Shown here piece by piece: positions 7,008 to 27,719 of a stretch of 64,000 nucleotides of DNA. The notes below the pieces were generated by a model. That model saw nothing but the letters and a program-made list of their open reading frames with translations. It had not been told where the DNA came from and made no database searches. This DNA is from an uncultured Gemmatimonadales bacterium (GTDB lineage: Bacteria; Gemmatimonadota; Gemmatimonadetes; Longimicrobiales; RSA9), in contig CAWAYJ010000017.1 of NCBI GenBank assembly GCA_963786235.1, forward strand, positions 245,855-309,854. Reading direction: 5' to 3'. Each line of letters starts with the position of its first letter. Positions within the stretch are counted from its first letter, which is position 1. A program made the translations under genes and the position numbers.

Positions 7008-9728
7008 ATGTTCGCTCCGATCGCTCGCGCGGCCCCGCTGCTCGCGCTGATGGCTCTTCCGTTCCCGGCCCGCGCCCAGCAGGCGCGCGACCTTTCGGTC
7101 TCGACGACGGTGCCGATGGCGAGCGCGGCCCCACGGACGTCCGCCATCGCCATCGATGGCCGGCTGGACGAGGCGTGCTGGCAGCAGGCCGTCCCGGCCA
7201 CGGGATTCCGGCAGTCGCAGCCGGACGAGGGTGCGCCGGCGTCGCTCCCCATCGAAGTCCGGATTCTGTTCGACGACCAGGCGCTCTACATCGGCGCGCG
7301 CATGAGCGAGCCGGGGGGCGTGGTGGCGCCGCTCGCCCGGCGCGACCAGCTGCTGGACGCGAGCGGCGACAACGGCTCGTTCAACTCGCTGACCACGGAC
7401 AAGCTGATCGTCCGGCTCGACCCGTACCACAACCACCTGGACGACGCCTGGTTCGAGGTGAATCCGGCAGGCGTCCGAGGCGATCAGTTCAACGGCGACC
7501 CGTCGTGGGACCCGATCTGGGATGCGGCCACGCACGTGGACTCGCTGGGCTGGACCGCCGAGCTGCGCATCCCGTTCAGCCAGCTCCGCTTCTCGCAGGA
7601 CCCGGAACAGAGCTGGGGTCTCCAGATCTGGCGCTACGTGGATCGGCTGAACGAGCAGGACATGTGGTCGTTCCGGCGCAGGAACGAGCCGAGCGGGCCG
7701 GCCTTCTTCGGCGATCTCGATGGTCTGGCCATTCCCGGCCGGCCTCGCCAGCTCGAGGTCCTGCCCTACGTGGTGACCGCCAGCCGGTTCGATCGCGCCG
7801 CGCCGGCCGACCCGTACAACGACAACCGCGAGATGCGCTTCAGCGCGGGCGCGGACCTCAAGGTCCTGCTCACATCGAACCTGACGCTCGATGCCACGCT
7901 CAACCCCGACTTCGGCCAGGTCGAGGTCGACCCGGCAACACTCAATCTCAGCGCGTTCGAGACGTACTATGACGAGAAGCGCCCGTTCTTCATCGCCGGC
8001 GCGAGCGCGTTCCGCTTCGGCGGCATGCGCTGCATGTTCTGCAACAACTCGTCCAGCCTGAGCGCCTTCTACTCGCGCCGCATCGGCCGGCCGCCGCAGC
8101 TGAACGGCTGGGTTTCCGACAACGCGGAGTACGTCGACGCGCCGGAGAACACGTCCATCCTCGGGGCGGCCAAGATCACCGGCCGGACCGGGAACGGCTA
8201 CACGGTCGCGCTGCTCGACGCCGTCACCGGCCGTGAGGAGGCCCGCTACCTCGGCACCGCTGGCGCGGCCGAGCGCACGCAGGTCGTGGAGCCGCTGAGC
8301 AACTACTTCGTCGGCCGGGTAAAGAAGGAGTTCCGCAACGCCAGCACGCTCGGCGGCATCCTGACCTCGACCACACGCCAGCTCGGCGATTCCGTCGTGA
8401 GCGCGCAACTCCGCAGCCACGCCGAGGCCGGCGGCATCGACTGGCGCCACACGTGGGGTGGGCGCGAGTACTCGTGGATGGGAAGTGCGCTGGTGTCCAG
8501 CGTCTCCGGTTCGCCCGCCGCGACCCTGCTCACGCAGCAATCGAGCGCGCACTACTTCCAGCGGCCGGACCGGTCCGTGCACGGGGACGGGCTGTTCGAC
8601 GCGCGCTACGATCCGACCGCCACGTCGCTCCGCGGATACGGGCTGTTCACGCGCGTGGGCAAGGACAACGGCACGCTGCTGTGGGAGGCCATGTCGAACG
8701 TCCGCAGCCCCGGCTTCGAGGTCAACGACCTCGCTTTCCTCAGCCGCGCCGACTACGCCTGGTTCAACGGCAACATCGGCGGCAACTGGACTGTGCCGAC
8801 CCGCTGGTACCGGAGCATCTTCACCAGCATCGGCGGCGCCACCGAGGTCAACTACGACGGCGACCGCACGCGGGCCGCGCTGCAGACGTTCTACGGCATG
8901 GAGCTGCCCAACTACTGGAACATCCGGCTGATGGGGATCCACGACGCGCCGGCCTTCGACGACCGACTCACGCGCGGCGGACCCGTCGTCAAGCGCACGG
9001 GTTACGACGTCGCCAGCCTGGAGGTCTCCACGGATGCGCGCGCCTCGGCGGTCTGGGACGTCATGGTGCAGGCCTCGCGCGGCGTCGGCGATGACACGCG
9101 TTCGCTCACGATCCGCCCCGGCGTCGCGCTCAAGCCGGCGGCCAACATCTTCATCCAGCTCTCGCCGAGCTACTCGCGCAATCAGTCCTCGGAGCAGTAC
9201 GTCACGACCGTTGCCGATCCCACGGCGAGCGCGTTCGACGGCAATCGCTACGTCTTCGGCTACATCACGACGAAGACGGTCTCGCTGGACACCCGCGTCA
9301 ACTGGACGTTCACGCCGGACCTCACGCTGCAGCTGTTCGCGCAGCCGTTCATCGCGAGCGGTGACTACGCCTCGTTCCGCGAGTTCGCCGCGCCGCGCAC
9401 GCTCGACAAGCTCGTCTACGGACGCGAGGCCGGCACGATCTCGTACGACGAGGCGTCGTCCACGTACCGGGTGGATCCGGACGCGAGCGGACCGGCACGA
9501 CCATTCACGTTCGACAATCCCGACTTCACAACCAGCGCGTTGCGCGGGACCGCCGTGCTGCGCTGGGAGTACCGGCCCGGCTCGACGCTGTTCTTCGTCT
9601 GGACCCAGCAACGCGCGGGTGACGATCCCGTCGGCACCTTCGACTTCGGACGGGCGCGCACGGCGATCTTCCGGCAGCGGCCGCTGAACGTGTTCCAGGT
9701 CAAGGCGACATACTGGTTCGGGCGCTGA
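7008..9728 (+). CDS. DUF5916 / CBM9-like domain protein (large secreted beta-rich protein)
   Basis: Signal peptide ...PFPARAQQ. The N-terminal segment IDGRLDEACWQQAVPATGFRQSQPDEGAP...ILFDDQALYIGARM is typical of CBM9-like/DUF5916 proteins, followed by a long beta-rich C-terminal region. Confidence 0.75.
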   Translation: MFAPIARAAPLLALMALPFPARAQQARDLSVSTTVPMASAAPRTSAIAIDGRLDEACWQQAVPATGFRQSQPDEGAPASLPIEVRILFDDQALYIGARMSEPGGVVAPLARRDQLLDASGDNGSFNSLTTDKLIVRLDPYHNHLDDAWFEVNPAGVRGDQFNGDPSWDPIWDAATHVDSLGWTAELRIPFSQLRFSQDPEQSWGLQIWRYVDRLNEQDMWSFRRRNEPSGPAFFGDLDGLAIPGRPRQLEVLPYVVTASRFDRAAPADPYNDNREMRFSAGADLKVLLTSNLTLDATLNPDFGQVEVDPATLNLSAFETYYDEKRPFFIAGASAFRFGGMRCMFCNNSSSLSAFYSRRIGRPPQLNGWVSDNAEYVDAPENTSILGAAKITGRTGNGYTVALLDAVTGREEARYLGTAGAAERTQVVEPLSNYFVGRVKKEFRNASTLGGILTSTTRQLGDSVVSAQLRSHAEAGGIDWRHTWGGREYSWMGSALVSSVSGSPAATLLTQQSSAHYFQRPDRSVHGDGLFDARYDPTATSLRGYGLFTRVGKDNGTLLWEAMSNVRSPGFEVNDLAFLSRADYAWFNGNIGGNWTVPTRWYRSIFTSIGGATEVNYDGDRTRAALQTFYGMELPNYWNIRLMGIHDAPAFDDRLTRGGPVVKRTGYDVASLEVSTDARASAVWDVMVQASRGVGDDTRSLTIRPGVALKPAANIFIQLSPSYSRNQSSEQYVTTVADPTASAFDGNRYVFGYITTKTVSLDTRVNWTFTPDLTLQLFAQPFIASGDYASFREFAAPRTLDKLVYGREAGTISYDEASSTYRVDPDASGPARPFTFDNPDFTTSALRGTAVLRWEYRPGSTLFFVWTQQRAGDDPVGTFDFGRARTAIFRQRPLNVFQVKATYWFGR

Positions 9729-9789
9729 GCGCGGCACCTCCCCGCTCCGGGACCTCGGCCATGATCATCATGGTATCATGATCTGATTA

Positions 9790-9818
9790 TTGATTTTAGA
9801 TCATAAACGGCTTATGCT
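9790..9818 (+). promoter_or_regulatory. Sigma70-like promoter TTGATT-N17-TATGCT, ending 6 nt before the ATG at 9825 (copy A)
   Basis: The hexamers and 17-nt spacer were read directly. The same element occurs at 14347..14375. Confidence 0.4.
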
Positions 9819-9824
9819 AGTTGC

Positions 9825-10088
9825 ATGAAGGACGTCAAGCGATACCTGGCGCAGATCGGCTCCCGGGGCGGCCGCAAGAGCCGGCGGACCCTGGACCCCG
9901 AGACAGCCCGGACGATGGTGCGGGTGCGAGAGGCGCGACGGGCGTTTCGTCGCTTTCGGACGATGTGCTTCTGGTCGTGCCGGCCGGATCTGGAGATCGG
10001 CGTCGATGACGTTGCCTGGGTTGCGGAGCAGCTGATGAAGCATGGCAACCGGGACGCCTGGAACGCGGGGGTCCGGCTGTGCCGTTGA
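9825..10088 (+). CDS. Small putative antitoxin-like protein upstream of the degraded AbiEii copy
   Basis: The 87-aa ORF is identical in sequence to 14382..14645. It has a basic N-terminus, IGSRGGRKSRRTLDPETARTMVRVREARR. Confidence 0.5.
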   Translation: MKDVKRYLAQIGSRGGRKSRRTLDPETARTMVRVREARRAFRRFRTMCFWSCRPDLEIGVDDVAWVAEQLMKHGNRDAWNAGVRLCR

Positions 10089-10659
10089 CGGATTTCCAGC
10101 GGGCGTTGCTCGCGGACCTCGCCGCGAGCGCGACGGGCGACCGTTATCTCGCGGGCGGCGCCGCACTGCACTTTGCGCCGAACACGACGCGCTACAGCGA
10201 CGACCTCGACTTCTTCCACGACTCCGAAGCCCGCGTGGCCTCGGCCTTCGCGGCCGACCGCGAGCAGCTCGGGCGGGCCGGCTACGCCGTGGACGTCGAG
10301 CTGAGCCTGCCCGGGCTCATTCGAGCGACCCGGGGTTGACGCCGCTTTCGCTGCTCGAGCTGCTCGAGCGGAGGGGCCGGTATCGGCCCGAGGACTTCGC
10401 CCGGCTGAATCTCGTCGAGCCGTTCGACCTGAAGCGGAGCCGGGAGACGTGGCTCGCGGCGCTGACGGAGGCGGAGGCGTTCGTACGCGAGCGGCCGCAG
10501 GAAGAGTACGGCTGTCTGTACTATTCCATGCGCATGCGCCGGTTCGTCGTGCCACGCGCCAATGCGAGCCTTGCGGCACAGGAGATCGTGCCCCATTTCG
10601 GTGCCCCCGGCGGGGTGGTGCCTCGCATGGCGGACGCCCGCGTCGAGGGCGTTGGCTGA
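10079..10659 (+). pseudogene. AbiEii/AbiGii-family nucleotidyltransferase toxin, with internal deletion and frameshift
   Basis: The N-terminal 86 aa match 14636..15454 and then hit a stop (..LIRATRG*). The C-terminal part (DPGLTPLSLLELLERRGRY...) continues in another frame (track ORF 10042..10659). About 80 codons present in copy B are missing. Confidence 0.75.
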
Positions 10660-10671
10660 AGTCAGCTGCAA

Positions 10672-11180
10672 TCTGAGAAGGACGGCTGGTACTGGCTGTT
10701 CTTCGGCGCCAACGACATCCAGAACGACGAGCAGGTCGGCGGGATCGGAGTGGCGCGCGCGCGTTCATCGGCGGGTCCGTTCGAGGACTGGCTGGAGAAG
10801 CCGCTCATCGACAGGTTCCACAACGGCGCGCAGCCGATCGACCAGATAGTGTTCCGTGACGCGGACGGCGCCTGGTGGATCGTCTACGGTGGCTGGCGGC
10901 ATTGCAACATCGCGCGGCTGAACGACGACTTCACCGGCTTCGTCCCGTTCCCGATGGCAGCACGTTCAGGGAGATCACGACCGAGGGCTACGTCGAGGGC
11001 GCGTTCATGCTGCTGAAGGACGGCAGGTACCATTTCATGTGGTCCGAAGGCGGCTGGACCGGCCCGGACTACGCGGTCGCGTACGAGATCGGCGGCTCGC
11101 GGTTCGGACCCTTCGAGCGGATCGCCAGGATCCTGCAGCAGGATCCCACGGTGGCGACGGGCGCCGGTCACCACTTCGTG
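10672..11180 (+). pseudogene. GH43 glycoside hydrolase fragment, 5'-deleted and frameshifted
   Basis: Track ORFs 10750..11016 and 10875..11249 together reproduce the middle of the GH43 gene at 15502..16983 (GPFEDWLEKPLI..., YVEGAFMLLKDGRYHFMWSEGGWTGPDYAVAY) in two frames. The N-terminal catalytic part is absent. Confidence 0.75.
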
Positions 11181-11206: not shown

Positions 11207-12316
11207 TCAGCGAATGAGCCGCAGAGTCAGGATCTGGACGGACATGTAGCCATCAGCGTCTTCATGGATTGCCGTGAGTCGACCGTCGTCCAGGAATGCC
11301 TGAGCAACCGAGTTGGGCAGGGACAGGCGCTGGTGGACAATCACTTCCCCTGTTGATGGATCCAGCACACTAATGATCGCGTCAAAGCTGGCGGCGAGCC
11401 GCGCCGGACTGAAGTAGTCCCGAGGCAGGGGGGATCCGGGTTCGACGGGGCGGAATGGATCCGGTTTGGAAGGATCCTGCAGTACCGTCGCCACCCATAG
11501 CAGCCCGGTAGCGGAATCCTGCCAGAGTGATCGCGCCCGTGTCAGAGGCTCAGCCGACTCCGATTTGGCAAACACGCCTCCCAGATGGCGGGCCCAGCCC
11601 GGATCCCATTTCAACGTGCTTTGGTGGCGACCATCCAGACTCCACAGCGAGAACTCCATCGGTGAATCAACCAACCAGACCTCCGACAGACTCCTGGCAG
11701 TGGCCACGTCCGTAATGCCCGGCGAAGTCGTGATGCCGTCACCGAGGGCCACGACAAAACGCCCGGAATGAAGCTCATAGACGCGAATTTCGTGACGGTA
11801 ACTTCCCTCCGCTTGCCGCAGCACTTCCGGTACCGCCACCAAGCTGTCGCCGACGGCCGTGATATCAGCGGGTGATGAAGGAATACCGCGGACCACCCGT
11901 TGAAAGTGCCCAGCCGGATCGAAAACATGGATCGCGCCACGGAGATCCTGGATCAGGATGTCACCGGATCGTGTCGTCGCGACCTTCATCGCCTGAGAAA
12001 GCTCCCCGGGGCCATTGCCCGACCGACCCAAGGTTCCCAACAGGACGCCGGCGGAGTCATAGGTGAGCGCGCCCGCCGTCGGCATGAACGGAGATACGAC
12101 GTAGAATTCCCCGCTACCTCCAGCCGCAACATTGCTCAACCCCGCTATGCCGACGCTGTCCGAGCGCGAACCGAGAATCACGCGGCTACGGACCCTGACT
12201 TCGCACGTTCCACACGATGGCACTCCCGACACGCGTATGGCCACGGGCAACTGAGCGGCAAGGCTTCCAGCCGATAGAACTAGCAGGCCGACAGCCTTGA
12301 AGGCTGCATCCATCAT
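11207..12316 (-). CDS. NHL-like 6-bladed beta-propeller protein, secreted (paralog 1 of 9)
   Basis: Signal MMDAAFKAVGLLVLSAGSLAAQ and the GRSGNGPGEL motif. The C-terminal strand ..SVQILTLRLIR is shared with the paralogs. Its start overlaps the stop of 12313..12837 as ATGA. Confidence 0.75.
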   Translation of the reverse strand: MMDAAFKAVGLLVLSAGSLAAQLPVAIRVSGVPSCGTCEVRVRSRVILGSRSDSVGIAGLSNVAAGGSGEFYVVSPFMPTAGALTYDSAGVLLGTLGRSGNGPGELSQAMKVATTRSGDILIQDLRGAIHVFDPAGHFQRVVRGIPSSPADITAVGDSLVAVPEVLRQAEGSYRHEIRVYELHSGRFVVALGDGITTSPGITDVATARSLSEVWLVDSPMEFSLWSLDGRHQSTLKWDPGWARHLGGVFAKSESAEPLTRARSLWQDSATGLLWVATVLQDPSKPDPFRPVEPGSPLPRDYFSPARLAASFDAIISVLDPSTGEVIVHQRLSLPNSVAQAFLDDGRLTAIHEDADGYMSVQILTLRLIR

Positions 12317-12837
12317 TCGCGAATCCACTCGGCCGCTGCCCGTTGTGCCAATGTCTGTCCCAACCACCTGGATACATGCCGATCAAGGTCGATCTGGACG
12401 GTGGCACCTCCGCAGGTACGTAGGTCCAGCAGTGCGCGCGCCTCATCGAAATCCGCTCGACCATCCTCGACATACGTGGCAAGAGCAACGATATCGCCAC
12501 CCTTGACGGCGGACGACACTTCCGCCAGCGTTTGCCCGCAGTTCGCGGCCGGACAGTTTCCTTCGTGCGGCACCAGAGGATCATAGCAGTAATTCTCGCT
12601 GGCGTCGCACACTCGGCAGCCGGGACTCCGGGATGGCTCGTCGCAACCGTCCTCGCCGTGCCACCAGTGCGCCGGTCTGCCGAAGTAGTAGCCCTCAGAA
12701 CAATTCGCACAGACCGAGTAGCCTGGCTCGCGCCCCAGCACCTGCTGGGCATGAACTCTGTTGGCGCCGCAGACCAGGACTGGGACCAGCGGCGCGAGGG
12801 AGACGAGTGTACGCTTGACTGGGTGCATCATTCTCAC
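12313..12837 (-). CDS. Secreted Cys/His-rich protein, family member A
   Basis: Signal ...VCGANRVHAQQ. Motifs: CANC, HWWHGEDGC, CRVC. The C-terminal domain has a single Cys (LDLRTCGGATVQIDLD). The architecture matches 30007, 53784 and 54514. Confidence 0.65.
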   Translation of the reverse strand: MRMMHPVKRTLVSLAPLVPVLVCGANRVHAQQVLGREPGYSVCANCSEGYYFGRPAHWWHGEDGCDEPSRSPGCRVCDASENYCYDPLVPHEGNCPAANCGQTLAEVSSAVKGGDIVALATYVEDGRADFDEARALLDLRTCGGATVQIDLDRHVSRWLGQTLAQRAAAEWIRE

Positions 12838-13042
12838 CTCCTGTGAAGGCCGTCTGGCGGAAGCCGAACGCGAAGCGCAGCCAGGTGTCCCGGTACTCCT
12901 TGACGCGCTCAGACCCGATGCGACGGATCCAATTTACGCCCCGGTGCGGCCATCTCCAAAGGCGAATGCGACAGATGCTCCGGCAAACGCGACATCCTCT
13001 GGCTCGCTGAACGAGCTGGGGCGACGCCGGGAAAGGCTGTCG

Positions 13043-13834
13043 TCACCAACGTGGCCGCATCAGCGCAGCGAGCCCCTCGGCAAGGCTGGTGCGGCCAACC
13101 AGCGCGGGAGACAACTGCCGCCTCCCGTGACTGGATTGTCGGAGGAGGCGCGCCGAGTCGGCGCCCGGACATGCGCCGATCAGCCGGAGCGCGGTACCCT
13201 TTAGCATCTGCGGGTCCGCGTCCGCATGGTTGCCCAGTGCGGCCCAGGACGATGCGTCGGGGAACGCGTCCAGAGCCCACAGCAGTACCATGGCATCCAG
13301 GAAGAACCTGGGTGTTATCCCGGACGCGAAATCTCGTGCGAACCACCGCTCGAGCGTCCGGACGGTCGTGGCTACGGCTCGAGCCCACGCCGCAACCGTG
13401 CGTATCGGTGGATCTGTGCCGGCCGCCCCGAGCAGAGCCGCCGTCGTTCGTTTCGAACAGACCACACTACGTCGGATGAAGCGGGCCATGCGGCTCCGGA
13501 GGCTGTCCCACGGTGCTTGCACGGCCTTCGTCAATTCGGCACGCGCGTGGCGAAACCACACGATCGCGTCGGCGAGGTTGGGTGCCACGATCGCGTTCTC
13601 GCCCTCCAACCTCGTGACCAGCACGAAACGCGTCCATGGATGGGCGCTCCGCAAGGCGCGCAGCTCGGGAGCGCCCGGCGCCTCGGCCAGCCATTCCTGC
13701 ACGGCCACGGCGGTATCAGCCCGGCGAACGCTCTTCGCGAACGCCGGCCACTTCTCGTGAAACTCCGCCGCAACTCCGATTGCCGGCTCGACCAGGTCTC
13801 TGAACCTCGGCGGACAGTACACTGCGACTCGCAT
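13043..13834 (-). CDS. Putative transcriptional regulator: receiver-like N-domain plus AraC-like HTH
   Basis: MRVAVYCPPRF... is a paralog of 28862, 61864 and (C-terminal half only) 51864. The C-terminal segment IRTVAAWARAVATTVRTLERWFARDFASGITPRFFLDAMVLLWAL resembles the AraC HTH_18 domain. Confidence 0.6.
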   Translation of the reverse strand: MRVAVYCPPRFRDLVEPAIGVAAEFHEKWPAFAKSVRRADTAVAVQEWLAEAPGAPELRALRSAHPWTRFVLVTRLEGENAIVAPNLADAIVWFRHARAELTKAVQAPWDSLRSRMARFIRRSVVCSKRTTAALLGAAGTDPPIRTVAAWARAVATTVRTLERWFARDFASGITPRFFLDAMVLLWALDAFPDASSWAALGNHADADPQMLKGTALRLIGACPGADSARLLRQSSHGRRQLSPALVGRTSLAEGLAALMRPRW

Positions 13835-13901
13835 GATGGCCTCCGTGAGCGCAGTTCACTCGATTCACAACCACCTCCCCGAGAAATGTGGAGCCTCCGC
13901 T

Positions 13902-14285
13902 CCCACGGCGAGCGCGTTCGACGGCAATCGCTACGTCTTCGGCTACATCACGACGAAGACGGTCTCGCTGGACACCCGCGTCAACTGGACGTTCACGCCG
14001 GACCTCACGCTGCAGCTGTTCGCGCTGCCGTTCATCGCCAGCGGCGACTACTCCTCCTTCCGCGAATTCGCAGCGCCGCGCACGCTCGACAAACTCGTGT
14101 ACGGACGCGACGCCGGCATGATCTCGTACGACGACGCGGCGTCCACGTACCGGGTGGATCCGGACGCGAGCGGACCGGCACAACCATTGGGCGACTTCGA
14201 CTTCGGCCGGGCGCGCACGGCCATCTTCCGGCAGCGGCCGCTGAACGTGTTCCAGGTCAAGGCGACGTACTGGTTCGGGCGCTGA
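13902..14285 (+). pseudogene. 3' remnant of a DUF5916 gene (duplicate of the 9220..9728 region, with an internal deletion)
   Basis: It encodes PTASAFDGNRYVFGYITTKTVSLDTRVNWTFTPDLTLQLFA...NVFQVKATYWFGR, matching the C-terminus of 7008..9728. It lacks the segment RPFTFDNPDF...QQRAGDDPV and the whole N-terminus. Confidence 0.8.
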
Positions 14286-14324
14286 GCGCGGCACCTCCCC
14301 GATCCGGGACCTCGACCAGAAGAG

Positions 14325-14375
14325 TCATGATATCATGATCTCATTATTGATTTTAGATCATAAACGGCTTATGCT
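14325..14375 (+). promoter_or_regulatory. Perfect 14-bp palindrome TCATGATATCATGA plus promoter TTGATT-N17-TATGCT, immediately upstream of the ATG at 14382
   Basis: Palindrome at 14325..14338, -35-like hexamer at 14347..14352, -10-like hexamer at 14370..14375. Only 6 nt separate the -10 from the ATG and no SD is present, which suggests a leaderless transcript. Confidence 0.45.
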
Positions 14376-14381
14376 AGTGCC

Positions 14382-14645
14382 ATGAAGGACGTCAAGCGGT
14401 ACCTGGCGCAGATCGGCTCACGGGGCGGCCGCAAGAGCCGGCGGACCCTGGACCCCGAGACGGCCCGGACGATGGTGCGGGTGCGTGAGGCGCGACGGGC
14501 GTTTCGTCGCTTTCGGACGATGTGCTTCTGGTCGTGCCGGCCGGATCTGGAGATCGGCGTCGATGACGTTGCCTGGGTTGCGGAGCAACTGATGAAGCAT
14601 GGCAACCGGGACGCCTGGAACGCGGGGGTCCGGCTGTGCCGTTGA
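14382..14645 (+). CDS. Small putative antitoxin-like protein of the AbiEii module
   Basis: 87 aa with a basic N-terminal segment. It overlaps the downstream AbiEii start by 10 nt. Confidence 0.55.
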   Translation: MKDVKRYLAQIGSRGGRKSRRTLDPETARTMVRVREARRAFRRFRTMCFWSCRPDLEIGVDDVAWVAEQLMKHGNRDAWNAGVRLCR

Positions 14646-15454
14646 CGGGTTTCCAGCGGGCGTTGCTCGCGGACCTCGCCGCGAGCGCGACGGGCGACCG
14701 TTATCTCGCGGGCGGCGCCGCACTGCACTTTGCGCCGAACACGACGCGCTACAGCGACGACCTCGATTTCTTCCACGACTCCGAAGCCCGCGTGGCCTCG
14801 GCCTTCGCGGCCGACCGCGAGCAGCTCGGGCGGGCCGGCTACGCCGTGGACGTCGAGCTGAGCATGCCCGGGTTCATTCGAGCGGTCGTCCGGCGAGAAG
14901 AGCAGGCTACACGGGTGGATTGGGCGCACGACTCGGCGTGGCGGTTCATGCCGCTCGTTCGAGACCCCCTGGGCGGGTTGCTCCTCCATTCGGTTGATCT
15001 GGCGGTCAACAAGACGCTTGCGCTGGGCGGACGGGATGAGCCTCGCGATTTCGTGGACATCCTCTTCGTGCACGATCGCATACTGCGCATTTCGGCGCTC
15101 TGCTGGGCCGCTGCGGGAAAGGACCCGGGACTCACCCCGCTCTCGCTGCTCGAGCTGCTCGAGCGGAGGGGCCGGTATCGGCCCGAGGACTTCGCCCGGC
15201 TGAATCTCGTCGAGCCGTTCGACCTGAAGCGGAGCCGGGAGACGTGGCTCGCGGCGCTGACGGAGGCGGAGGCGTTCGTGCGCGAGCGGCCGCAGGAGGA
15301 GTACGGCTGCCTGTACTACTCCACGCGCTTGCGCCGGTTCGTCGTGCCACGCGCCGATCCGAGCCTTGCGGCACAGGAGATCGTGCCCCATTTCGGCGCC
15401 CCCGGCGGCGTGGTGCCTCGCATGGCGGACGCCCGCGTCGAAGGCATGGGCTGA
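14636..15454 (+). CDS. AbiEii/AbiGii-family nucleotidyltransferase toxin
   Basis: FQRALLADLAASATGDRYLAGGAALHFAPNTTRYSDDLDFFHD matches the family signature (GGTAL..R.S.DLDFF). Full length, 272 aa. Confidence 0.8.
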   Translation: MPLTGFQRALLADLAASATGDRYLAGGAALHFAPNTTRYSDDLDFFHDSEARVASAFAADREQLGRAGYAVDVELSMPGFIRAVVRREEQATRVDWAHDSAWRFMPLVRDPLGGLLLHSVDLAVNKTLALGGRDEPRDFVDILFVHDRILRISALCWAAAGKDPGLTPLSLLELLERRGRYRPEDFARLNLVEPFDLKRSRETWLAALTEAEAFVRERPQEEYGCLYYSTRLRRFVVPRADPSLAAQEIVPHFGAPGGVVPRMADARVEGMG

Positions 15455-15501
15455 AGCTGCAATCGTTCGACTCACATTGGTTCCTTTCCCGGAGATGTGT
15501 G

Positions 15502-16983
15502 ATGGGCCAACCACCGAGGATCCGCCGTGCGCTCGTCGTCTGCGTCCTCGCGCTGGTGCCGGGCGCGACCGTGCTCGCGCAGCAGAGCCGGTCCGGCAAC
15601 CCGATCCTGCCCGGCTGGTACGCGGACCCCGAGGCGCACGTCTTCGACGGCCGGTACTGGATCTTCCCGACGTACTCGGCGCGCTACGACGAGCAGACGT
15701 TCCTGGACGCGTTCTCGTCGCACGACCTGATCACGTGGACGAAGCACGAGCACGTGCTCGATGCCGCCAACGTGAAGTGGGCGCGCCGCGCGATGTGGGC
15801 GCCCTCGATCATCGAGAAGGACGGCTGGTACTACCTGTTCTTCGGCGCCAACGACATCCAGAACGACGAGCAGACCGGCGGCATCGGCGTCGCCCGCGCG
15901 CGCACGCCGGCGGGTCCATTCGAGGACTGGCTGGGCAAGCCGCTGATCGGCCAGTTCCACAACGGCGCGCAGCCGATCGACCAGATGGTGTTCCGCGACG
16001 CGGACGGCGCGTACTGGATCGTCTACGGCGGCTGGCGGCACTGCAACATTGCGCGGCTGAACGACGACTTCACGGGCCTCGTCCCGTTCCCCGACGGCAC
16101 CACGTTCAAGGAGATCACGCCCGACGGGTACGTCGAGGGCGCGTTCATGCTGATCCGGGATGGGAAGTACTACTTCATGTGGTCCGAGGGCGGCTGGACG
16201 GGACCCGACTACGCGGTGGCGTACGCGATCGGCGACTCGCCGTTCGGCCCGTTTCAGCGGATCGGCAAGATCCTGCAGCAGGATCCCGCGGTGGCGACGG
16301 GCGCCGGTCACCACTCCGTGCTGCATTCGCCGGCGTCGGATCGCTGGTACATCGTCTACCACCGGCGGCCGCTCGGCGAGACCGACCGGAACCACCGCGC
16401 CGTGAGCATCGACCGGCTCGAGTTCGACGAGAACGGCCGGATCCGGCCGGTGAAGATCACGTTCGATGGCGTCGCCGCGGACCCGCTTCCCGGCGTGCGC
16501 CAGGACACCCGACAGGAGGCACGCATGGGCGCGATCGGTCTGGAAGACCTCGCCGGTGAATGGACGGGCACCAACAAGCTGTGGGTCATGCCCGGCGAGC
16601 CCGTCCGCGAATCCGATGCCTCCGCATCGGCGAGCCTGGTCGGACAGGGCCAGTTCCTCATGGTGCGCTACACTTGGGCCGAGGGCGGCAAGCCGCAGGA
16701 CGGCACGCTGCTGATCGGGACGGCGTCCGGCGAGAAGCCGGTGGACATCGTGTGGCTCGACTCCTGGCACATGCGCAACGACGTGATGCGGCTCCGCGTG
16801 GAACCGGCCGGCGACGCGCTGCTGAACGTGCTCGGCAGCTACCCGGCGCCGACCGGACCCGATTGGGGCTGGCGGATCGTGCTCCGGCCCGAGTCCCGTG
16901 ACGCGTTCCGCATGCTGATGTACAACATCAAGCCGGGTGGGCCGGACGTGCTGGCGGTGGAAGCGGCGTACACGCGGCGCTGA
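15502..16983 (+). CDS. Glycoside hydrolase family 43 with a fused C-terminal domain of about 150 aa (possibly DUF1579-like)
   Basis: Signal ...ATVLAQQ. GH43 motifs: NPILPGWYADPE, WAPSIIEKDGWYYLFF, YVEGAFM..DGKYYFMWSEGGW. The C-terminal domain begins at the in-frame ATG 16525, which is preceded by AGGAGG. Confidence 0.85.
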   Translation: MGQPPRIRRALVVCVLALVPGATVLAQQSRSGNPILPGWYADPEAHVFDGRYWIFPTYSARYDEQTFLDAFSSHDLITWTKHEHVLDAANVKWARRAMWAPSIIEKDGWYYLFFGANDIQNDEQTGGIGVARARTPAGPFEDWLGKPLIGQFHNGAQPIDQMVFRDADGAYWIVYGGWRHCNIARLNDDFTGLVPFPDGTTFKEITPDGYVEGAFMLIRDGKYYFMWSEGGWTGPDYAVAYAIGDSPFGPFQRIGKILQQDPAVATGAGHHSVLHSPASDRWYIVYHRRPLGETDRNHRAVSIDRLEFDENGRIRPVKITFDGVAADPLPGVRQDTRQEARMGAIGLEDLAGEWTGTNKLWVMPGEPVRESDASASASLVGQGQFLMVRYTWAEGGKPQDGTLLIGTASGEKPVDIVWLDSWHMRNDVMRLRVEPAGDALLNVLGSYPAPTGPDWGWRIVLRPESRDAFRMLMYNIKPGGPDVLAVEAAYTRR

Positions 16984-17115: not shown

Positions 17116-20100
17116 ATGATCGATAGAGGTCGAACCATGATTGGCTTGCCGCGCATTTCCCGTACCCCGTCTTCCCGATTCCTCGTCGTCTTCGCACTGC
17201 TCGCGCTGCCGGCCGGCTCCGCGCCGCTCGTCGCGCAGCAGATGGCGCCCGACACGCTGAAATCGTCCGACGTGTCCGCCCTGAAATTCCGCAACCTGGG
17301 CGGCGCGTTCATGAGCGGCCGCATCGTCGAGGTCGCCGTCGATCCGACGGACAGGGCGACGTGGTACGTCGCATCCGCGTCGGGCGGCGTGTGGAAGACG
17401 ACGAACGCGGGCAACACGTTCGATCCGATCTTCGACCATTACGGCTCCTACTCGATCGGCACAGTGGCCATCGATCCGAACAATCCGGCCACCATCTGGG
17501 TCGGCACGGGCGAGAACAACTCGCAGCGCTCCGTCGCGTACGGCGACGGTATCTACAAGTCGCTCGACGGCGGCCGCTCGTTCGAGAACATGGGCCTGAA
17601 GACGTCGGAGCACATCGCACGTATCCTCGTCGATCCGCGGAGCTCCGACCGCGTGTTCGTCGCGGCGCAGGGCCCGCTCTGGAGCGCGGGCGGCGAGCGC
17701 GGCGTGTACCGCACGGAGGACGGCGGGCAGACGTGGGAGCAGGTGCTCGCGGTCGATGAGAATACCGGTGCCACGGACCTGCTCATGGACCCGCGCAACC
17801 CGGACGTGCTCTACGCCGCGACGTACCAGCGGCGCCGGCACGTGTGGACGCTGATCGACGGCGGTCCCGGCTCCGGCATCTGGAAGAGCACGGACGGCGG
17901 CGACACGTGGCGCAAGATCGAGTCCGGCATCCCGGGCGGCGACAAGGGCCGGATCGGTCTCGCGCTCGCGCCCTCGGACCCGGACATCCTGTACGCCATC
18001 ATCGAGCTGCCCGAGTACTCCGGCGGGTTCTACCGTTCGATGAACGGCGGCGAGAGCTGGGAGCGGCGGAGCGACCACGTGTCCGGCAGCCCGCAGTACT
18101 ACAACGAGATTTACGTGGACCTGAAGAATCCGGACGTGGTCTACTCGCTCGACACCTACACGATGATCACGGAGGACGGCGGGCGCACGTTCTCGCCGCT
18201 GGGCGAGACCGACAAGCACGTGGACAACCACGCGCTCTGGATCGATCCCGACGACGGCAACCACCTCCTCGAGGGCTGCGACGGCGGCCTCTACGAGACG
18301 TGGGACCGCGGCGCGACCTGGCGCTTCTTCACCAACCTGCCGCTCGCCCAGTACTACAAGACGGCGGTCAGCTACGGCGAGCCGTTCTTCTACGTGTACG
18401 GCGGCACGCAGGACAACGCGACGCACGGCGTGCCGAGCGGCACCATGAACACGCACGGGATCCGGAACTCCGACTGGTTCACCACCGTGTTCGGCGACGG
18501 CTTCGGCCCCGCGGTCGACCCGAGCAATCCCGACATCGTGTACTCGGAGTGGCAGTACGGCGGCCTGGTCCGCTACGACCGGAAGTCGGGCGAGGCGGTG
18601 GACATCAAGCCGCAGGAGAGCGCGGACGGCCCGCCGCTCGTCTGGAACTGGGACTCGCCCATCCTGATCTCGCCGCACAACCCGTCGCGGCTCTACTTCG
18701 GCGCGCAGATCCTCTTCCGGAGCGACGACCGCGGCGACTCGTGGACCGCGATCTCGCCCGACCTCACGCGTGGCCTCGATCGCAACAAGCTGGAGATCAT
18801 GGGCCGGGTCTGGAGCGTGGACGCCGTCGCCAAGAACGCGTCCACCTCGATCTACGGCAACCTCACGACGGTGAGCGAATCGCCCGTCGTCGCGAACCTG
18901 CTCTACGCCGGCACCGACGACGGCCTCATCCAGGTGAGCGAGGACGGCGGCGCGAACTGGCGGAAGATCGAGCAGTTCCCCGGCATCCCGGACCGCACCT
19001 ACGTCAACGACATCGAGGCGTCGCAGACCAATGCCAACACCGTGTACGCCGCGTTCAACAACCACAAGATGGGCGACTTCAAGCCCTATCTGCTGGTGAG
19101 CCGGGACCGCGGCCGGACCTGGCGCTCGATCGCCGGCAACCTGCCGGAGCGCGGCTCCGTCTACACGGTCGTGCAGGACGACGAGGTGCCGAGTCTCATG
19201 TTCGCCGGCACCGAGTTCGGCGTGTTCGTCACTCGCGATGAAGGCAACAGCTGGACGAAGATGGGCGGTGGCCTGCCCACCATCGCGATTCGCGACCTCG
19301 TGATCCAGCGCGACCAGGACGCGCTCGTCGCCGCATCGTTCGGCCGCGGCTTCTGGATCCTCGACGACTACGCGCCGCTTCGCACCGTCGGCAAGACCGC
19401 ACAGGACGCCGAAGCGCATTTCTTCCCGATCAAGCCGGCGAAGCTCTACGTCCGCGTCACGCCGCTCGGCGTGACCGGCAAGGCGTTCCAGGGCTCCGAT
19501 TTCCACACGGACCCGAACCCCACGTTCGGCGCCGTATTCACGTACAACCTGAAGACAGCGCTGCAGACGAAGAAGGCGGAGCGGCAGGCGGAGGAGAAGA
19601 AGCTCGAGAAGGACGGCAAGGACACGCCCTACCCGTCGTGGGACGAGCTCAAGGCCGAGGACCGCGAGGAGGAGCCGGCCATCGTGCTCACGGTGCGGGA
19701 TCAGGATGGCGACGTGGTGCGACGCATCACCGGTCCGGTTTCCGCCGGCGTGCACACCGTCTCGTGGGACCTCACGTATCCGGGCTTCACGCCGGTCAAC
19801 GCAAACACCGGCTCCGACGGCAACGGCCCCAGCGTCGTGCCCGGCCGCTTCACGGTCGAGCTTGCGCGCCGCGTCGACGGCGAGTTCGAGACGCTGACCG
19901 ACCGTGTGCCCTTCCAGGTCGAGGCCATCGGCGTGCACACGCTGCCGGTGCCGGACCGTGCGCAAACGCTCGCGTTCTACCAGCGAGCGGGCGACCTGCA
20001 GCGTCGCGTGATGGGCATGAACGCCGCCCTCGGCGAGGCGATGCAGAGCATCCAGGCGATGAAGAACGCCGCCATGCGCGATCCCGCGGGTACGCCCGAG

Positions 20101-20495: not shown

Positions 20496-21065
20496 ATGGA
20501 GAATGATATCATGGCGACGAAGGCGTCAGGACGGTTCGTGCTGCGGCTGGAGCCGGGGTTGCATGCGGCGTTGCGGCGGGCGGCGGCGGCGGCGGGCGTG
20601 TCGCTCAACGAGTACTGCGCGCGGAAGCTGTCGGCGCCGGGTTCGGATGCGACGGGCGCGGCGGGTGCGATCGTGGCACGTGCGGCGGAAACGGTCGGGG
20701 ACGGCCTTGTCGGGGTTGTGGCGTTCGGCTCGTGGGCGCGCGGCGAGGAGCGGTCGGACTCGGACCTGGACATCCTGATCGTGGTGGATCGGCGCGTGAA
20801 GTTGAATCGTTCGGTCTACCGCGGCTGGGATTCCGGGGACCTGGAGGTGGGCGGGCTGCGGGTGGAGCCGCACATCGTGCATCTGCCGGAGCCATCGGAT
20901 CGGCCGTCGTCGTTGTGGCTGGAGGTGGCGGTGGACGGTGTGGTGCTGTTCGAGCGAGGGCTGGAGGTTTCGCGGCATCTGGCGCGGGTCCGGTCGTTCA
21001 TCGCGGAGGGTGGGGCGCGGCGGAAGTGGTCGCACGGTCAGCCGTACTGGGTCGAGGCGGCGTGA
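20496..21065 (+). CDS. RHH/HicB-like domain fused to a minimal nucleotidyltransferase (MNT) domain
   Basis: The N-terminus GRFVLRLEPGLHAALRRAAAAAGVSLNEYC resembles HicB/Arc-like antitoxins. It is followed by the MNT motif GSWARGEERSDSDLDILIVVD. The start may instead be ATG 20511. Confidence 0.7.
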   Translation: MENDIMATKASGRFVLRLEPGLHAALRRAAAAAGVSLNEYCARKLSAPGSDATGAAGAIVARAAETVGDGLVGVVAFGSWARGEERSDSDLDILIVVDRRVKLNRSVYRGWDSGDLEVGGLRVEPHIVHLPEPSDRPSSLWLEVAVDGVVLFERGLEVSRHLARVRSFIAEGGARRKWSHGQPYWVEAA

Positions 21066-21712: not shown

Positions 21713-22052
21713 CGGCCGCTGCCCACTCGCAGGTAGTTACAGGTCGACTACCGCCCGGCTCGTGAAGGTCATCGGTGGAGTGGATGGTTGGGTGGCGAAG
21801 ATCGTCAAGACGCGTACAGGCGACCAGTAGGATGGAGCAAACGGCCAGCTCGGATCAGTACCTCGATACATTGTCGCCTGAGGCATAGATCGTCGGGCGT
21901 CCCTGGCAACCATGATAAGGTCGTCGTGCGGACGACGAGCACAAGCTGCCCGATCCGCTCGCGGTACGGCGCCGTGGGCTTGTTGAGCTTTACCGGTTGC
22001 GGCCAAGCCATGCGGCCGCAGCCGACGTCGTTGTTCTGTCCCGATCGGACGA

Positions 22053-22229
22053 TCAGTCACAACAGGGGATTGGCGGATCGCCCATTCCACAGCCGGGCGA
22101 GACGCAGGCGATTTCGCCGTTGTCGAATCCAAACTTCTTCGTGCCCGACTCACCCGCCATCACTGTTGCTGCCGTGATGGCAACCGCGACTACAGCGGCC
22201 ACGATTGATCCTGCGATCCCTCTCCTCAT
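22053..22229 (-). CDS. Small secreted Cys-rich peptide, 58 aa; not in the ORF track
   Basis: My own translation: MRRGIAGSIVAAVVAVAITAATVMAGESGTKKFGFDNGEIACVSPGCGMGDPPIPCCD. A GAGGAGGG SD lies just upstream. It sits 35 nt downstream of the thioredoxin-like gene and shares the C-x-PGC...CCD pattern with 34793..34993. Confidence 0.55.
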   Translation of the reverse strand: MRRGIAGSIVAAVVAVAITAATVMAGESGTKKFGFDNGEIACVSPGCGMGDPPIPCCD

Positions 22230-22264
22230 CCAGCCCTCCTCTCAGGTGATTGTTGCCCGCACGG

Positions 22265-22780
22265 TCAGCGCCCGGTTCTGGCCATCGGGTCCAAGCTCAC
22301 GTCCAGAAGCTGCACCACAGAGTCACGCACTAGAGCAAGCCTCGCTGCATTTCCATCGAGCTGCGTGATCAGGATGGCCTTATCTGCGAGATTTCGACGC
22401 AGCCGCTCCACGCCCGGATCCGATGCAAGCGGCAACTGTACCTTCTCCCGACGAAGGAACAAGCAAACGGCCTGTGTGTCCTCCACGGCTGTAAGCACAA
22501 CGGCGATCTGCCCACCCCGTCGTTTCTCCAGCTCGATCTCTCTCAAGAGACGACCCACGTTCCAGCATTGGTAGCACGTTTCAGCCGTCACAACGATGAT
22601 TTTCCGAGGAAAGTTGGCATTCCCCGCATGGCCGCAACCGTTTCCGGCGAGATCCGCTCGGAGCACGGACCCCAAGGATTCTGCCACAGCACTTGGAAGA
22701 TCATCTTTCGGCTCGGAGTTAGCCACCAGGGCCAGCGCACCGGCCCCGAGGATTGCGGGAACGAAATGCCACCTACTCAC
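22265..22780 (-). CDS. Thioredoxin-fold CxxC protein, exported (paralog of 34215..34709)
   Basis: N-terminal hydrophobic segment WHFVPAILGAGALALVANS. The motif IIVVTAETCYQCWNVG aligns with ILVVTKEQCLGCANVG. The GTG start at 22780 overlaps the propeller stop by 8 nt. Confidence 0.6.
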   Translation of the reverse strand: MSRWHFVPAILGAGALALVANSEPKDDLPSAVAESLGSVLRADLAGNGCGHAGNANFPRKIIVVTAETCYQCWNVGRLLREIELEKRRGGQIAVVLTAVEDTQAVCLFLRREKVQLPLASDPGVERLRRNLADKAILITQLDGNAARLALVRDSVVQLLDVSLDPMARTGR

Positions 22781-23855
22781 GATCCACTGAGCGAAGGCTA
22801 TAGAGCACGAACTGCAGGGTGTTTCCCGTGGGATCCGCGATCGCCACCAGCGTATCGGCAAAAGCACCGATCACCGCTGGCGCGTTCGTCAGGGTATGCC
22901 ACTCTCCCGCGGGGCTTCGTATGGCAAGACTGATTCGATCTCCGTCGTTTCTGCTGCCGCGGACAAACGGCACGGCTACGTGGGATCCCACCTGCAACGG
23001 TGCCAGCGGTCCGTCGAACGCGCGCCGCCACTCCAGAAAGTCCAGAGCGTTCGCGAGGTTGTCGGGTTGGTCTTGGGGAGGTGCGTAGTTCACCAGCGGA
23101 ATCCCAATGCGGGAAGTACTTCCTGTGCCTGGATCGAAGGTCCACGCGGTGTCGCTGACTTCGGGTAGGATCCAGATCGTATCGTTGATGACTCCAATCG
23201 ATTGGCCGACGAAGATGTTCCAGGCCGCTCGTGCAGCTGCGGATTTCACTTCAATCGGCACGAGGCGGTCGAGGATGTTGCCATGACCGTCGAGGTGAGC
23301 GAGAGCGTTTCCACCATCGGTGAAGGACCGGACCGATGCAAACACGCTACCATTCTCGCTTGCAACCAGGCCGAACACACCGCTCAGACCGTCGAGGAGA
23401 ATCGTCTCCTCAACGGTTCCGTCCGTGAGATTCAGCAAGCTCAGTCGGTTCGTCGCGGAACCGCCGACGTACGCGTGCGCCTGGCCCACGAGTACGAGGT
23501 ATTGAGCCGATGGGAACTCGGAGGGGCCATGGCCTCTCCGGCCAATTACGTGCTGCAGTGTCCCGTCTGCCGCGTAAACCTTGACGTTCGACTCTGAGTA
23601 GTCGGCGACAATGAAACGGCCCGAAGGATCCACTTTCAGGTCGGTGATGCGCACAAGCAGGGCCGAGTCCGGTTGTTCGGGCGTTACGGTCCGTGCCAGC
23701 TCGAACATGTCGGCGAATGGCTGAATGAGACCTGTTCTCTGTTGAGGCGGTGCCGGGATCCCTTGGTCGGTGGATTCGGAGCATGCTAAACCGATGGAGA
23801 GCGGCGTCAGAAGCAGGAGGGCACATAGGGCATGGTTGCTCCACTGATTCCTCAT
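22773..23855 (-). CDS. NHL-like 6-bladed beta-propeller lipoprotein (paralog 2)
   Basis: Lipobox LSIGLAC, the motif GRRGHGPSEF, and the C-terminal strand ..LQFVLYSLRS. The start was chosen at internal Met 23855. Confidence 0.75.
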   Translation of the reverse strand: MRNQWSNHALCALLLLTPLSIGLACSESTDQGIPAPPQQRTGLIQPFADMFELARTVTPEQPDSALLVRITDLKVDPSGRFIVADYSESNVKVYAADGTLQHVIGRRGHGPSEFPSAQYLVLVGQAHAYVGGSATNRLSLLNLTDGTVEETILLDGLSGVFGLVASENGSVFASVRSFTDGGNALAHLDGHGNILDRLVPIEVKSAAARAAWNIFVGQSIGVINDTIWILPEVSDTAWTFDPGTGSTSRIGIPLVNYAPPQDQPDNLANALDFLEWRRAFDGPLAPLQVGSHVAVPFVRGSRNDGDRISLAIRSPAGEWHTLTNAPAVIGAFADTLVAIADPTGNTLQFVLYSLRSVDRE

Positions 23856-24173
23856 CTGGCGGAACACCGGTGTGTGGGCAGACGAATCACGTAGTCCGCC
23901 TTCAGGGATAGTATAAGGCACGTTGTCCAACTGGACATTATCTTGAGCCGACTCGAACGTCAAGCACTGCATTTCCGCACATTGTCTGCGGGACTGTGCG
24001 TATTCTTCTGTAGTATTTTGTCGATTCTGCGCATACAGGTTCGCAGGGTCGGTCTATGCCTCAACCGACGCCGGGTCGCGCAGCCTCTGGGCGAAATCGG
24101 TGATCGTGCTGCCATGATGGCCTTTCGGATGTGGTAGCCGTCAAACGACGTCGTTGGATCGGCATCGGCGCTC

Positions 24174-24953: not shown

Positions 24954-24975
24954 TGCTACGAGGCGACATGGAGAG

Positions 24976-27402: not shown

Positions 27403-27559
27403 AGAGCCCTGCAGAACCGGAGCGCGCGCTTCTCCGGCAGTAAAGCCAAAAAGATAGCCAATTCTTGGTCATGCGCGGTGTCCTGCCCGAGTGCATGGTA
27501 GGAGCGACCGTCTGGAATGAGCCGGGCGGGCTTCACCCGATTCCAACCCGGAGCGGACC

Positions 27560-27715
27560 ATGCGAACTCGTCGTGCGCAGGTGCTCGCGCTGTTTGCCGT
27601 CCTAGCCATCGGCCTCCTTTCGGGCTGCAGGAAGGATATCCTGGAGCCACCGCCGTCGCCCGAGTCGGGTCCGTGCTACTGGATCGGCACTCAGTACATC
27701 TGTATTCCCGGCTGA
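27560..27715 (+). CDS. Small lipoprotein-like ORF, 51 aa; not in the ORF track
   Basis: My own translation: MRTRRAQVLALFAVLAIGLLSGCRKDILEPPPSPESGPCYWIGTQYICIPG. Lipobox LLSGC, GGAG 6 nt upstream, and the stop lies 4 nt before the C1-like gene. A conserved paralog is at 60571..60723. Confidence 0.6.
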   Translation: MRTRRAQVLALFAVLAIGLLSGCRKDILEPPPSPESGPCYWIGTQYICIPG

Positions 27716-27719
27716 AGCA

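Follow-up and report, generated by a model that had tools for sequence, protein, structure and literature searches.

A 64,000-nucleotide (nt) stretch of contig CAWAYJ010000017.1 from an uncultured Gemmatimonadales bacterium, referred to here as the window, carries four related regulator genes: three full paralogs and one copy that consists of the C-terminal half only. The N-terminal half of the encoded proteins is predicted to be a CheY-like pseudo-receiver without the phospho-acceptor Asp, and the C-terminal half a divergent AraC-type domain with two helix-turn-helix (HTH) motifs. A conserved DNA element, with two direct repeats beside a promoter-like site, follows each gene. On balance, these regulators probably act as phosphorylation-independent, pseudo-receiver-gated AraC-like activators that bind the tandem repeats as dimers and drive the adjacent promoter. 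Direct support comes from the paralogy of the copies, the fold, the loss of catalytic residues, the two-HTH architecture, the repeat element and the conserved gene order. To these observations the model adds dimerization, repeat binding, activation and the nature of the signal.

Paralogous regulators and their two domains

The regulator genes, and the predicted domains of copy 1, are as follows (with the basis of each assignment).

13043-13834, minus strand: regulator copy 1, 263 amino acids (aa) (open reading frame (ORF), predicted models, fold and profile comparisons)
13517-13834, minus strand: pseudo-receiver of copy 1, approximately aa 1-106 (predicted model)
13130-13453, minus strand: bipartite HTH domain of copy 1, approximately aa 128-235 (predicted model)
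28862-29695, plus strand: regulator copy 2, 277 aa, 44% identical to copy 1 (ORF, tblastn)
61864-62652, plus strand: regulator copy 3, 262 aa, 68% identical to copy 1 (ORF, tblastn)
51864-52307, plus strand: regulator copy 4, 147 aa, DNA-binding half only, 46% identical to copy 1 (ORF, tblastn, ratio of nonsynonymous to synonymous substitution rates (dN/dS))

An original prediction, made from the sequence alone, had listed these three full copies and the single HTH-only copy. All four ORFs are present as it described, and the three full translations do begin with the MRVA(V/A)YCP start that it named. The tblastn E-values between copies range from 1e-22 to 1e-111, so their paralogy is far beyond chance. 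A mechanical ORF list permits earlier starts for copy 2 (28712) and copy 3 (61819), but the starts at 28862 and 61864 are favored because of homology and the common MRVA start. Homology in copy 4 begins at 51831 (approximately residue 121 of copy 2), 33 nt 5' of its own ATG, and this copy appears to have arisen through deletion of the receiver-like half. GC content at third codon positions exceeds that at second positions (GC3 > GC2) in copies 1, 3 and 4, the three scored. Comparisons with nearest relatives give dN/dS values of 0.18-0.47 at dS 0.4-1.5 (0.21-0.33 for copy 4), which indicates that the copies are coding sequences under constraint.

The N-terminal region is modeled with mediocre confidence by AlphaFold when the full-length protein is used with 15 sequences. 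Residues 1-111 modeled alone from a 104-sequence alignment yield a confident structure, with a predicted local distance difference test (pLDDT) score of 95.5 and a predicted template modeling (pTM) score of 0.89. This model is a clean (βα)5 arrangement in the order β1 (3-6), α1, β2, α2, β3 (41-46), α3, β4 (69-74), α4, β5 (90-93), α5. The strand pattern noticed in the original prediction, VAV(Q/I)EWL and V(L/V)VTR, corresponds to β3 and β4 of the model, with YCPP after β1 and Q/I-E at the end of β3. When the model is compared to the Protein Data Bank (PDB) with Foldseek, at least 34 of the top 50 matches, counted by eye, are receivers or known pseudo-receivers. They include VbrR, KdpE, Spo0F, ComE, RcsB, CosR, NtrC1, the AraT receiver (6swb), FrzS and CpaE-type domains, with TM-scores up to 0.76 and E-values from 3e-4 to 1.5e-2.

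Profile comparison points in the same direction. Column counts and domain scans of individual family members use a 95-member alignment throughout. With hhalign, the profile of this family matches a profile of five receivers (CheY, Spo0F, PhoB, NtrC and OmpR) with 72% probability and an E-value of 3.4e-5 over 82 columns. Any errors in the reference receiver sequences could only weaken this match. CheY alone aligns in the identical register (E = 0.18). This register places Glu47 on the phospho-acceptor Asp57 and Thr74 on Thr87. All three full copies in the window carry Glu47, and the acceptor position across the family is most often Glu (34), Pro (31) or Asp (16). The acidic pair (CheY D12/D13) is absent. 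Positions 7-8 are Cys-Pro in the window, and family members carry C56/S17/A12 at position 7 and P30/A16/S16/E7 at position 8. Thr74, at the end of β4, is found in 88 of the 95 members and all full window copies. Strand β5 ends in Trp93 (85 of 95 members) followed by F, L or I, and no Lys is conserved at positions 93-96, where the CheY K109 equivalent was placed by topology rather than by superposition. Thus, of the five catalytic receiver residues, only the β4 Thr is retained.

These comparisons support, at the level of remote homology, a CheY-like pseudo-receiver that would be incapable of canonical phosphotransfer, and common descent from receivers is likely. Because a receiver fold is combined with the absence of four of the five catalytic residues, the domain falls within the pseudo-receiver or aspartate-less receiver (ALR) class, which is defined by a receiver fold lacking the phosphotransfer residues (PMC12632262, PMC4395418). 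No histidine kinase (HisKA/HATPase) was found among the approximately 35 window ORFs scanned, with small ORFs scanned in part, or in the Pfam tables of homologous loci, and a distantly encoded kinase is possible. A redox disulfide between Cys7 and Cys41 was also considered and rejected. In the model these residues lie at opposite ends of neighboring parallel strands, and each of them varies among the window copies.

The C-terminal domain is modeled with helices at 128-139, 147-153, 158-168, 175-190, 197-204, 208-221 and 225-235, and one further helix follows. In MarA, seven helices form two HTH motifs with a long helix between them, and the predicted helix order here is the same. Two HTH-like motifs are evident in the family, PxRxVxxLAxxxGCxRxTLxxxW and SWxxVAxxLGVxxxTLxRxAxRLxG, and they are linked by the long helix RLxDFLDWxLLLRA. 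The family consensus aligns with positions 1-77 of the 80 in HTH_18, from helix 3 of the first HTH into the second (E = 1.2e-7; 32.3 bits versus a cut-off of 33.6), and scores 26.7 bits against HTH_AraC (cut-off 26.6). Individual members match less often: at E ≤ 0.01, HTH_18 is found in 10 of the 95 and HTH_AraC in six, and HTH_23 is the most frequent model (37 of 95).

Family profile matches in the PDB include SoxS (4e-3), AdpA (0.03) and TFIIB (1e-3). The SoxS alignment pairs family residues 155-232 with SoxS 28-103, in register across both HTH units. Residue types in the recognition helix compare as RTLERW versus STLQK. A phmmer search of the PDB with the C-domain consensus returned no match. 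We regard the domain as a divergent AraC/XylS-type bipartite DNA-binding domain, an assignment supported by remote sequence and model similarity, with formal membership borderline. The resemblance of this half to AraC HTH_18, as originally proposed, therefore holds for the family consensus and for the two-HTH model, but the window copies themselves fall below every curated threshold. The profile and structure comparisons that had been suggested for both halves leave each standing as a remote similarity, and they assign no other known family.

The family extends well beyond the window. A word-seeded search of 5.8 billion proteins recovered only 12 close relatives. An exhaustive hidden Markov model (HMM) search of 1.84 billion cluster representatives recovered 456 proteins at E ≤ 1e-3, of which 184 reach E ≤ 1e-10, and the family thus comprises at least 456 clusters at 50% identity. 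Nearly all members are 240-290 aa long (approximately 260 aa), with profile matches that span both halves. This is a sizeable pseudo-receiver family that is undetected by current Pfam and NCBIfam models. Three members, the only ones that could be placed by a scan seeded with a tight alignment subset, reside in species-representative genomes; all are Gemmatimonadota metagenome-assembled genomes (MAGs), from Longimicrobiales, Longimicrobium sp. and Gemmatimonadaceae. A genome-collection scan seeded with the close-family alignment found no confirmed relative, and a PDB sequence search with a four-sequence profile returned only noise.

Loss of the receiver half is not limited to copy 4, where it is deleted. 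This half is frameshifted in a homologous regulator from locus L008 (514-1353) and truncated at approximately residue 44 in one from L010 (360-1064), and the DNA-binding half is intact in each case. Such repeated damage could reflect recurrent loss of the N-terminal domain or errors in metagenome assembly.

A repeat-plus-promoter-like element after each regulator gene

Alignment of the regions 3' of the regulator stop codons revealed a conserved DNA block. It is found after every window copy and after seven homologous genes in six independent loci, for a total of eleven instances recognized by a position weight matrix (PWM) or by eye. The independent loci, designated L001, L003, L007 (with two genes, a and b), L008, L009 and L010, are on six other contigs, and their regulators are 42-70% identical. 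The full element combines a CGAGCCA box and two 13-nt direct repeats, spaced by 21 bp from start to start, with the hexamer TTGGAG 1-2 nt after the second repeat and TAnnTT a further 17-18 nt on. In the window, the elements are located as follows.

12931-13009, minus strand: element after copy 1 (alignment, PWM)
13000-13009, minus strand: box of the copy 1 element, CAGCGAGCCA
12982-12994, minus strand: repeat 1 of the copy 1 element, TGTCGCGTTTGCC
12961-12973, minus strand: repeat 2 of the copy 1 element, TGTCGCATTCGCC
12954-12959 and 12931-12936, minus strand: promoter-like part of the copy 1 element, TTGGAG and TAAATT with a 17-nt spacer
62687-62765, plus strand: element after copy 3, with box 62687-62696, repeats 62702-62714 and 62723-62735, TTGGAG 62737-62742 and TAAATT 62760-62765
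52356-52421, plus strand: element after copy 4, with repeats 52356-52368 and 52377-52389, TTGGAG 52392-52397 and TATCTT 52416-52421
52313-52322, plus strand: GCC box of copy 4
29756-29820, plus strand: degenerate element after copy 2, with repeats GTCGGCATTTGGT (29756-29768) and ATCCGCTTTTGGG (29777-29789) and TAATTT 29815-29820

The repeats are TGTCGCATTCGCC-like in copies 1 and 3 and TTCCGCGTTTSCC-like in copy 4 and in L003, with half-site variants TGTCGCATTC and TTCCGCGTTT. A PWM built from window copies 1, 3 and 4 was used to scan both strands of the 64 kb for pairs spaced by 21 bp. At a threshold of at least 16, only the three post-regulator sites are found in the window; shuffled sequences give a mean of 0.48 at threshold 14. 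Outside the window, PWM matches occur directly after the regulator in L003, L009 and L007b. The L003 repeats are spaced by 31 bp, with intermediate GCGTTT units phased at 10-11 bp. The same layout is recognized by eye and in alignment in L007a, L008 and L010.

In an alignment of ten loci, GCC and TA..TT are invariant, and the repeat positions and TTGG are nearly so. An analysis of shifts that assumes no motif yields a single sharp peak of self-similarity, at 21 bp (45.5% identity, z = 7.5), and other shifts reach at most 2.8. The flanking non-coding DNA has diverged beyond alignment, but the element keeps its 21-bp repeat and TA..TT. These features mark the conserved element as a candidate operator and promoter of the AraC type.

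The possibility that this intergenic block encodes a structured RNA or a riboswitch was considered and rejected; no Rfam match exists in the window, and the alignment contains zero consensus pairs. A weaker pair of 13-nt repeats with 21-bp spacing occurs in L001 at 18580-18613. It is located within the module, 5' of a 90-aa ORF (18699-18971) rather than beside a regulator gene, and may be a second regulated promoter.

Module organization, proposed mechanism and alternatives

The regulators are embedded in modules of recurring genes. Their principal members in the window are listed below; signal-peptide-like N-termini were recognized by eye.

12313-12837, minus strand: Cys-rich protein with a signal-peptide-like N-terminus, first after the copy 1 element, without a family match
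30007-30513, plus strand: Cys-rich protein with a signal-peptide-like N-terminus, first after the copy 2 element, with a homolog in L007
11207-12367, minus strand: NHL/DUF5128-like six-bladed propeller of module 1
22773-23972 (minus strand), 30276-31745, 33044-34192, 50319-51554, 52559-53761, 55089-56234 and 63336 to the window end: propeller paralogs
27720-28751, plus strand: papain-fold (Peptidase_C1) putative pseudo-protease directly 5' of copy 2
60745-61767, plus strand: paralogous putative pseudo-protease directly 5' of copy 3
24976-27402, plus strand: SARP-like protein of module 2 with a weak OmpR-type winged HTH (wHTH), BTAD and TPR; the same arrangement is found in L007
57924-60380, plus strand: paralogous SARP-like gene of module 4, 68% identical

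Module 2 has the fullest order, with the SARP-like gene, the papain-fold gene, the regulator, the element, the Cys-rich gene and then NHL/DUF5128-type propellers. Module 4 begins with the same first three genes and continues with a propeller lipoprotein from 63336. Module 1 consists of the regulator, the element, the Cys-rich gene and a propeller, and module 3 has the truncated regulator with propellers on both sides. The order of module 2 recurs whole in L007 and partly in L001, L008 and L010. For example, a small ORF and/or propellers follow the regulator in L007, L008 and L010, and a C1-like gene precedes it in L001, L007 and L008. More distant members of the family have other neighbors. 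The gene beside the regulator of P0019 is unrelated, L011 offers only a weak 66-aa match, and L012 and L013 have different genes, so the propeller link is specific to the close subfamily. No literature on DUF5128 was found.

The original prediction held that each copy marks a module of propeller and Cys-rich genes. Propellers do occur in every module, but modules 3 and 4 proceed straight to them without a Cys-rich gene. The related suggestion of a module-specific regulator gains support from conserved gene order in six further loci and from the operator-like element.

When compared to their closest solved homolog, the cysteine protease 3ois, the Peptidase_C1 proteins have Ser in place of the catalytic Cys (DQGxLGSS for GSC) and Gln in place of the His (GGQ for GGH). 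Because both catalytic residues are replaced, these proteins are probably pseudo-proteases with a binding role. Identity between modules or loci is 71-88% for the papain-fold proteins, 42-68% for the regulators and approximately 25% for the propellers. The N-terminal Trans_reg_C match of the SARP-like proteins is weak (E ~1e-3), and the module 4 gene is split by an in-frame stop at approximately 59559-59561 into ORFs 57924-59561 and 59601-60380. Genes for DsbA/Thioredoxin_4 proteins recur near the regulators of related and more distant loci (L001 19228-19917, L007 16051-16722 and L013 2769-3548), which fits a need for disulfide formation in secreted Cys-rich proteins.

Several observations concern turnover of these modules. 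A direct segmental duplication (9214-11180 and 13897-16320, approximately 2 kb, 87-95% identical with indels) flanks module 1 (11207-13834), and this three-gene module may therefore have been inserted or captured by recombination, as the flanking copies suggest. On the duplication lie a C-terminal fragment (13833-14285) of a DUF5916 gene that is present in full at 7008-9728, and an AbiEii toxin-antitoxin pair (14382-15454) with a degraded copy at approximately 9825-10768. The propeller/regulator modules reside in lower-GC stretches (22000-35000 and 50000-64000), where GC content is 0.59-0.64 versus 0.67-0.72 elsewhere. The second of these stretches is bordered by a gene resembling serine recombinases (Zn_ribbon_recom, 49147-50661, minus strand), which overlaps the mechanical ORF of the first propeller there. 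Other toxin-antitoxin-like genes between modules (20496-21065 and 39736-40281) include a fusion of HicB to a nucleotidyltransferase and a DUF6036 nucleotidyltransferase. The window also carries duplicated MacB/FtsX permeases, which, together with DUF5916, would be consistent with a Gemmatimonadota genome.

In the proposed mechanism, the regulators would be cytoplasmic, phosphorylation-independent transcription factors of approximately 260 aa in which the pseudo-receiver serves as a dimerization or partner-binding module. Two subunits would bind in tandem to the two 13-bp repeats, which lie 21 bp (two helical turns) apart just 3' of the regulator stop codon. Because the promoter-proximal repeat abuts the weak -35-like TTGGAG, RNA polymerase would be brought to the TTGGAG-N17/18-TAnnTT promoter by the bound protein. 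Promoter activation would then switch on the adjacent Cys-rich and propeller genes. Copy 4, if expressed, would act as a DNA-binding domain on its own, in the manner of MarA or SoxS. As the source of the input signal, the best candidates are the products of two genes just 5', the conserved papain-fold putative pseudo-protease and the SARP-like protein with BTAD and TPR. A more speculative extension, which we consider doubtful, is that the pseudo-protease, possibly together with the SARP-like protein, acts as a sensor or partner switch that docks on the pseudo-receiver and gates the AraC-like domain, to give each fast-evolving cassette of secreted propeller and Cys-rich proteins a private switch. 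If so, a cassette of 'dead' parts would operate without phosphorylation and provide a new input logic for pseudo-receivers.

A number of results weigh against this activator model. Pfam and NCBIfam scans of the four window proteins return no match at E ≤ 10, and formally these proteins belong neither to PF00072 nor to the AraC families of Pfam. Response_reg is matched neither by the window copies at this limit nor by the 95 family members or their consensus. The Foldseek E-values for the N-terminal domain are modest, and other flavodoxin-like folds (RCK, MilB and flavodoxin) are intermixed with the receivers. For the C-terminal domain, the generic models HTH_23 and HTH_28 score equal to or above the AraC models. 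An hhalign comparison with MarA, SoxS and Rob is significant (E = 2.2e-4) but pairs the second HTH of the family with the first of MarA, which leaves the register ambiguous. With the full-length model, no Foldseek match falls below E = 0.5, and CdpR (E = 0.59) is the one AraC-family protein recognized near the top.

The case for the element also has weaknesses. The elements of copy 2 and L001 are degenerate, and that of copy 2 is without a clear TTGG hexamer and is below the PWM threshold. The scan of the window is circular because the PWM was trained on the three sites that it finds, and the ten aligned loci are paralogs or orthologs whose conservation is not independent evidence. A strong sigma-70 promoter was sought and rejected, as a scan calls none at any of the four sites. 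By our own count, TTGGAG/TAAATT agrees with seven of the 12 consensus positions, as expected only of a weak, activator-dependent promoter. In module 4, approximately 570 nt (62766-63335) separate the element from the next gene. This interval contains no Cys-rich ORF and could be a long leader or the site of a lost gene.

Some of the same evidence can be read in other ways. The repeats might be bound by the SARP-like wHTH-BTAD-TPR protein, with the AraC-like proteins acting elsewhere or only modulating. SARPs bind direct repeats with a periodicity of approximately 11 or 22 bp beside the -35 and -10 elements, so the two-turn spacing and the additional phased GCGTTT units of L003 suit such a protein, and BTAD/TPR genes with a weak Trans_reg_C match are indeed located 5' in modules 2 and 4 and in L007. 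However, each of the eleven instances of the element immediately follows an AraC-like gene. Such instances occur in modules 1 and 3, and in L003 and L001 without a BTAD gene within 10 kb, where trans-acting paralogs are possible, and one window BTAD copy is interrupted by its in-frame stop. We judge this, the main alternative, unlikely, while granting it some weight. It is improbable that the N-terminal domain is instead a generic flavodoxin-like α/β module for ligand binding or oligomerization, of the sort that many AraC-family proteins carry, with receiver likeness by convergence. Such a module would account for the lack of any PF00072 match in any member, for the RCK, MilB and flavodoxin-like folds found at similar Foldseek E-values, for the weak matches of the consensus to OKR_DC_1_N and TrkA_N and for the absence of four catalytic residues. 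It is at odds with the predominance of receivers among the top 50 structural matches, which include the pseudo-receivers FrzS and CpaE-type domains, and with the canonical register of the 82-column hhalign match. The surviving β4 Thr is nearly invariant, and the acceptor position is still acidic in many members (Asp in 16 and Glu in 34 of 95).

Finally, some or all copies might be decaying remnants without a regulatory role in mobile or fast-turnover islands, conserved through recent duplication. The lower-GC stretches, the duplication flanking module 1, the serine-recombinase-like gene bordering module 3, the deleted, truncated or frameshifted N-terminal domains (copy 4, L010 and L008) and the frequent transposases of homologous loci fit such a history. 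It is nonetheless highly improbable. The dN/dS values and the dS range over which they hold indicate that the copies are old and constrained, the 21-bp repeat and TA..TT persist while flanking DNA has diverged, and at least 456 clusters have a uniform length of approximately 260 aa.

Relation to known regulatory systems

Two comparable groups of proteins, REC-AraC response regulators and Asp-less pseudo-receivers, are both already well known (PMC4395418, PMC12632262). The window family shares its domain order, a (βα)5 domain and then an AraC-type double HTH, with receiver (REC)-AraC response regulators of the YesN/AraT type (Response_reg plus HTH_18 or HTH_AraC), and the AraT receiver is among its structural matches. 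Unlike them, it is without the acidic pocket, the acceptor Asp and the Lys, has no adjacent histidine kinase in the ORFs scanned, and in the window falls below every Pfam and NCBIfam threshold.

With pseudo-receiver or ALR regulators (ChxR, HP1043, RitR, FrzS and the plant pseudo-response regulators (PRRs)), the family shares a receiver fold without catalytic residues and an orphan status, and FrzS is among the fold matches. To our knowledge, bacterial pseudo-receivers have OmpR/winged-helix, LuxR or non-DNA-binding outputs, and a literature search for a pseudo-receiver with an AraC-like output found no such case. Glu is the most frequent substitution at the ALR acceptor site (26%; PMC4395418) and is typical of the plant PRRs (PMC12632262). 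PF00072 or one of six minor Pfam families, PF06490 (FleQ) among them, recognizes most of the pseudo-receivers described so far (PMC12632262). In contrast, none of these models recognizes the window family. The consensus of its N-terminal domain alone gives weak matches, to PF06490 (E = 0.03) and to OKR_DC_1_N (8e-4), and the family consensus also weakly matches TrkA_N.

The DNA element can be compared to the sites of AraC at araI1-I2, XylS at Pm and RhaS. These comprise two direct half-sites with 21-bp phasing, of which the proximal one touches the -35 element. The layout predicted here from sequence has the same tandem repeats beside a weak -35. It differs in that the regulator gene is upstream and co-directional rather than divergent, and in that the N-terminal domain is a predicted pseudo-receiver rather than a cupin or sugar-binding domain. 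Copy 4 resembles MarA and SoxS in consisting of the double-HTH half only, and the family profile matches SoxS in the PDB, but this copy was probably derived by deletion of a receiver half.

Pseudo-receivers are common, but activation of the bacterial ones has been described as largely unknown (PMC12632262). The family brings to this question a concrete candidate operator, two 13-bp repeats 21 bp apart beside a promoter-like site. Natural experiments are available in the copies without a receiver half, and the putative pseudo-protease and the SARP-like protein are conserved candidates for partners. The family would also provide a first handle on the regulation of large, fast-diverging propeller/Cys-rich cassettes in the poorly studied Gemmatimonadota. 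What is new is the pairing of a pseudo-receiver with an AraC-like output, both halves uncatalogued, together with the size of the family, the operator-like element and the putative pseudo-protease partner. Relative to the systems compared here, it is a new variant of a known regulator type and not a new kind of system.

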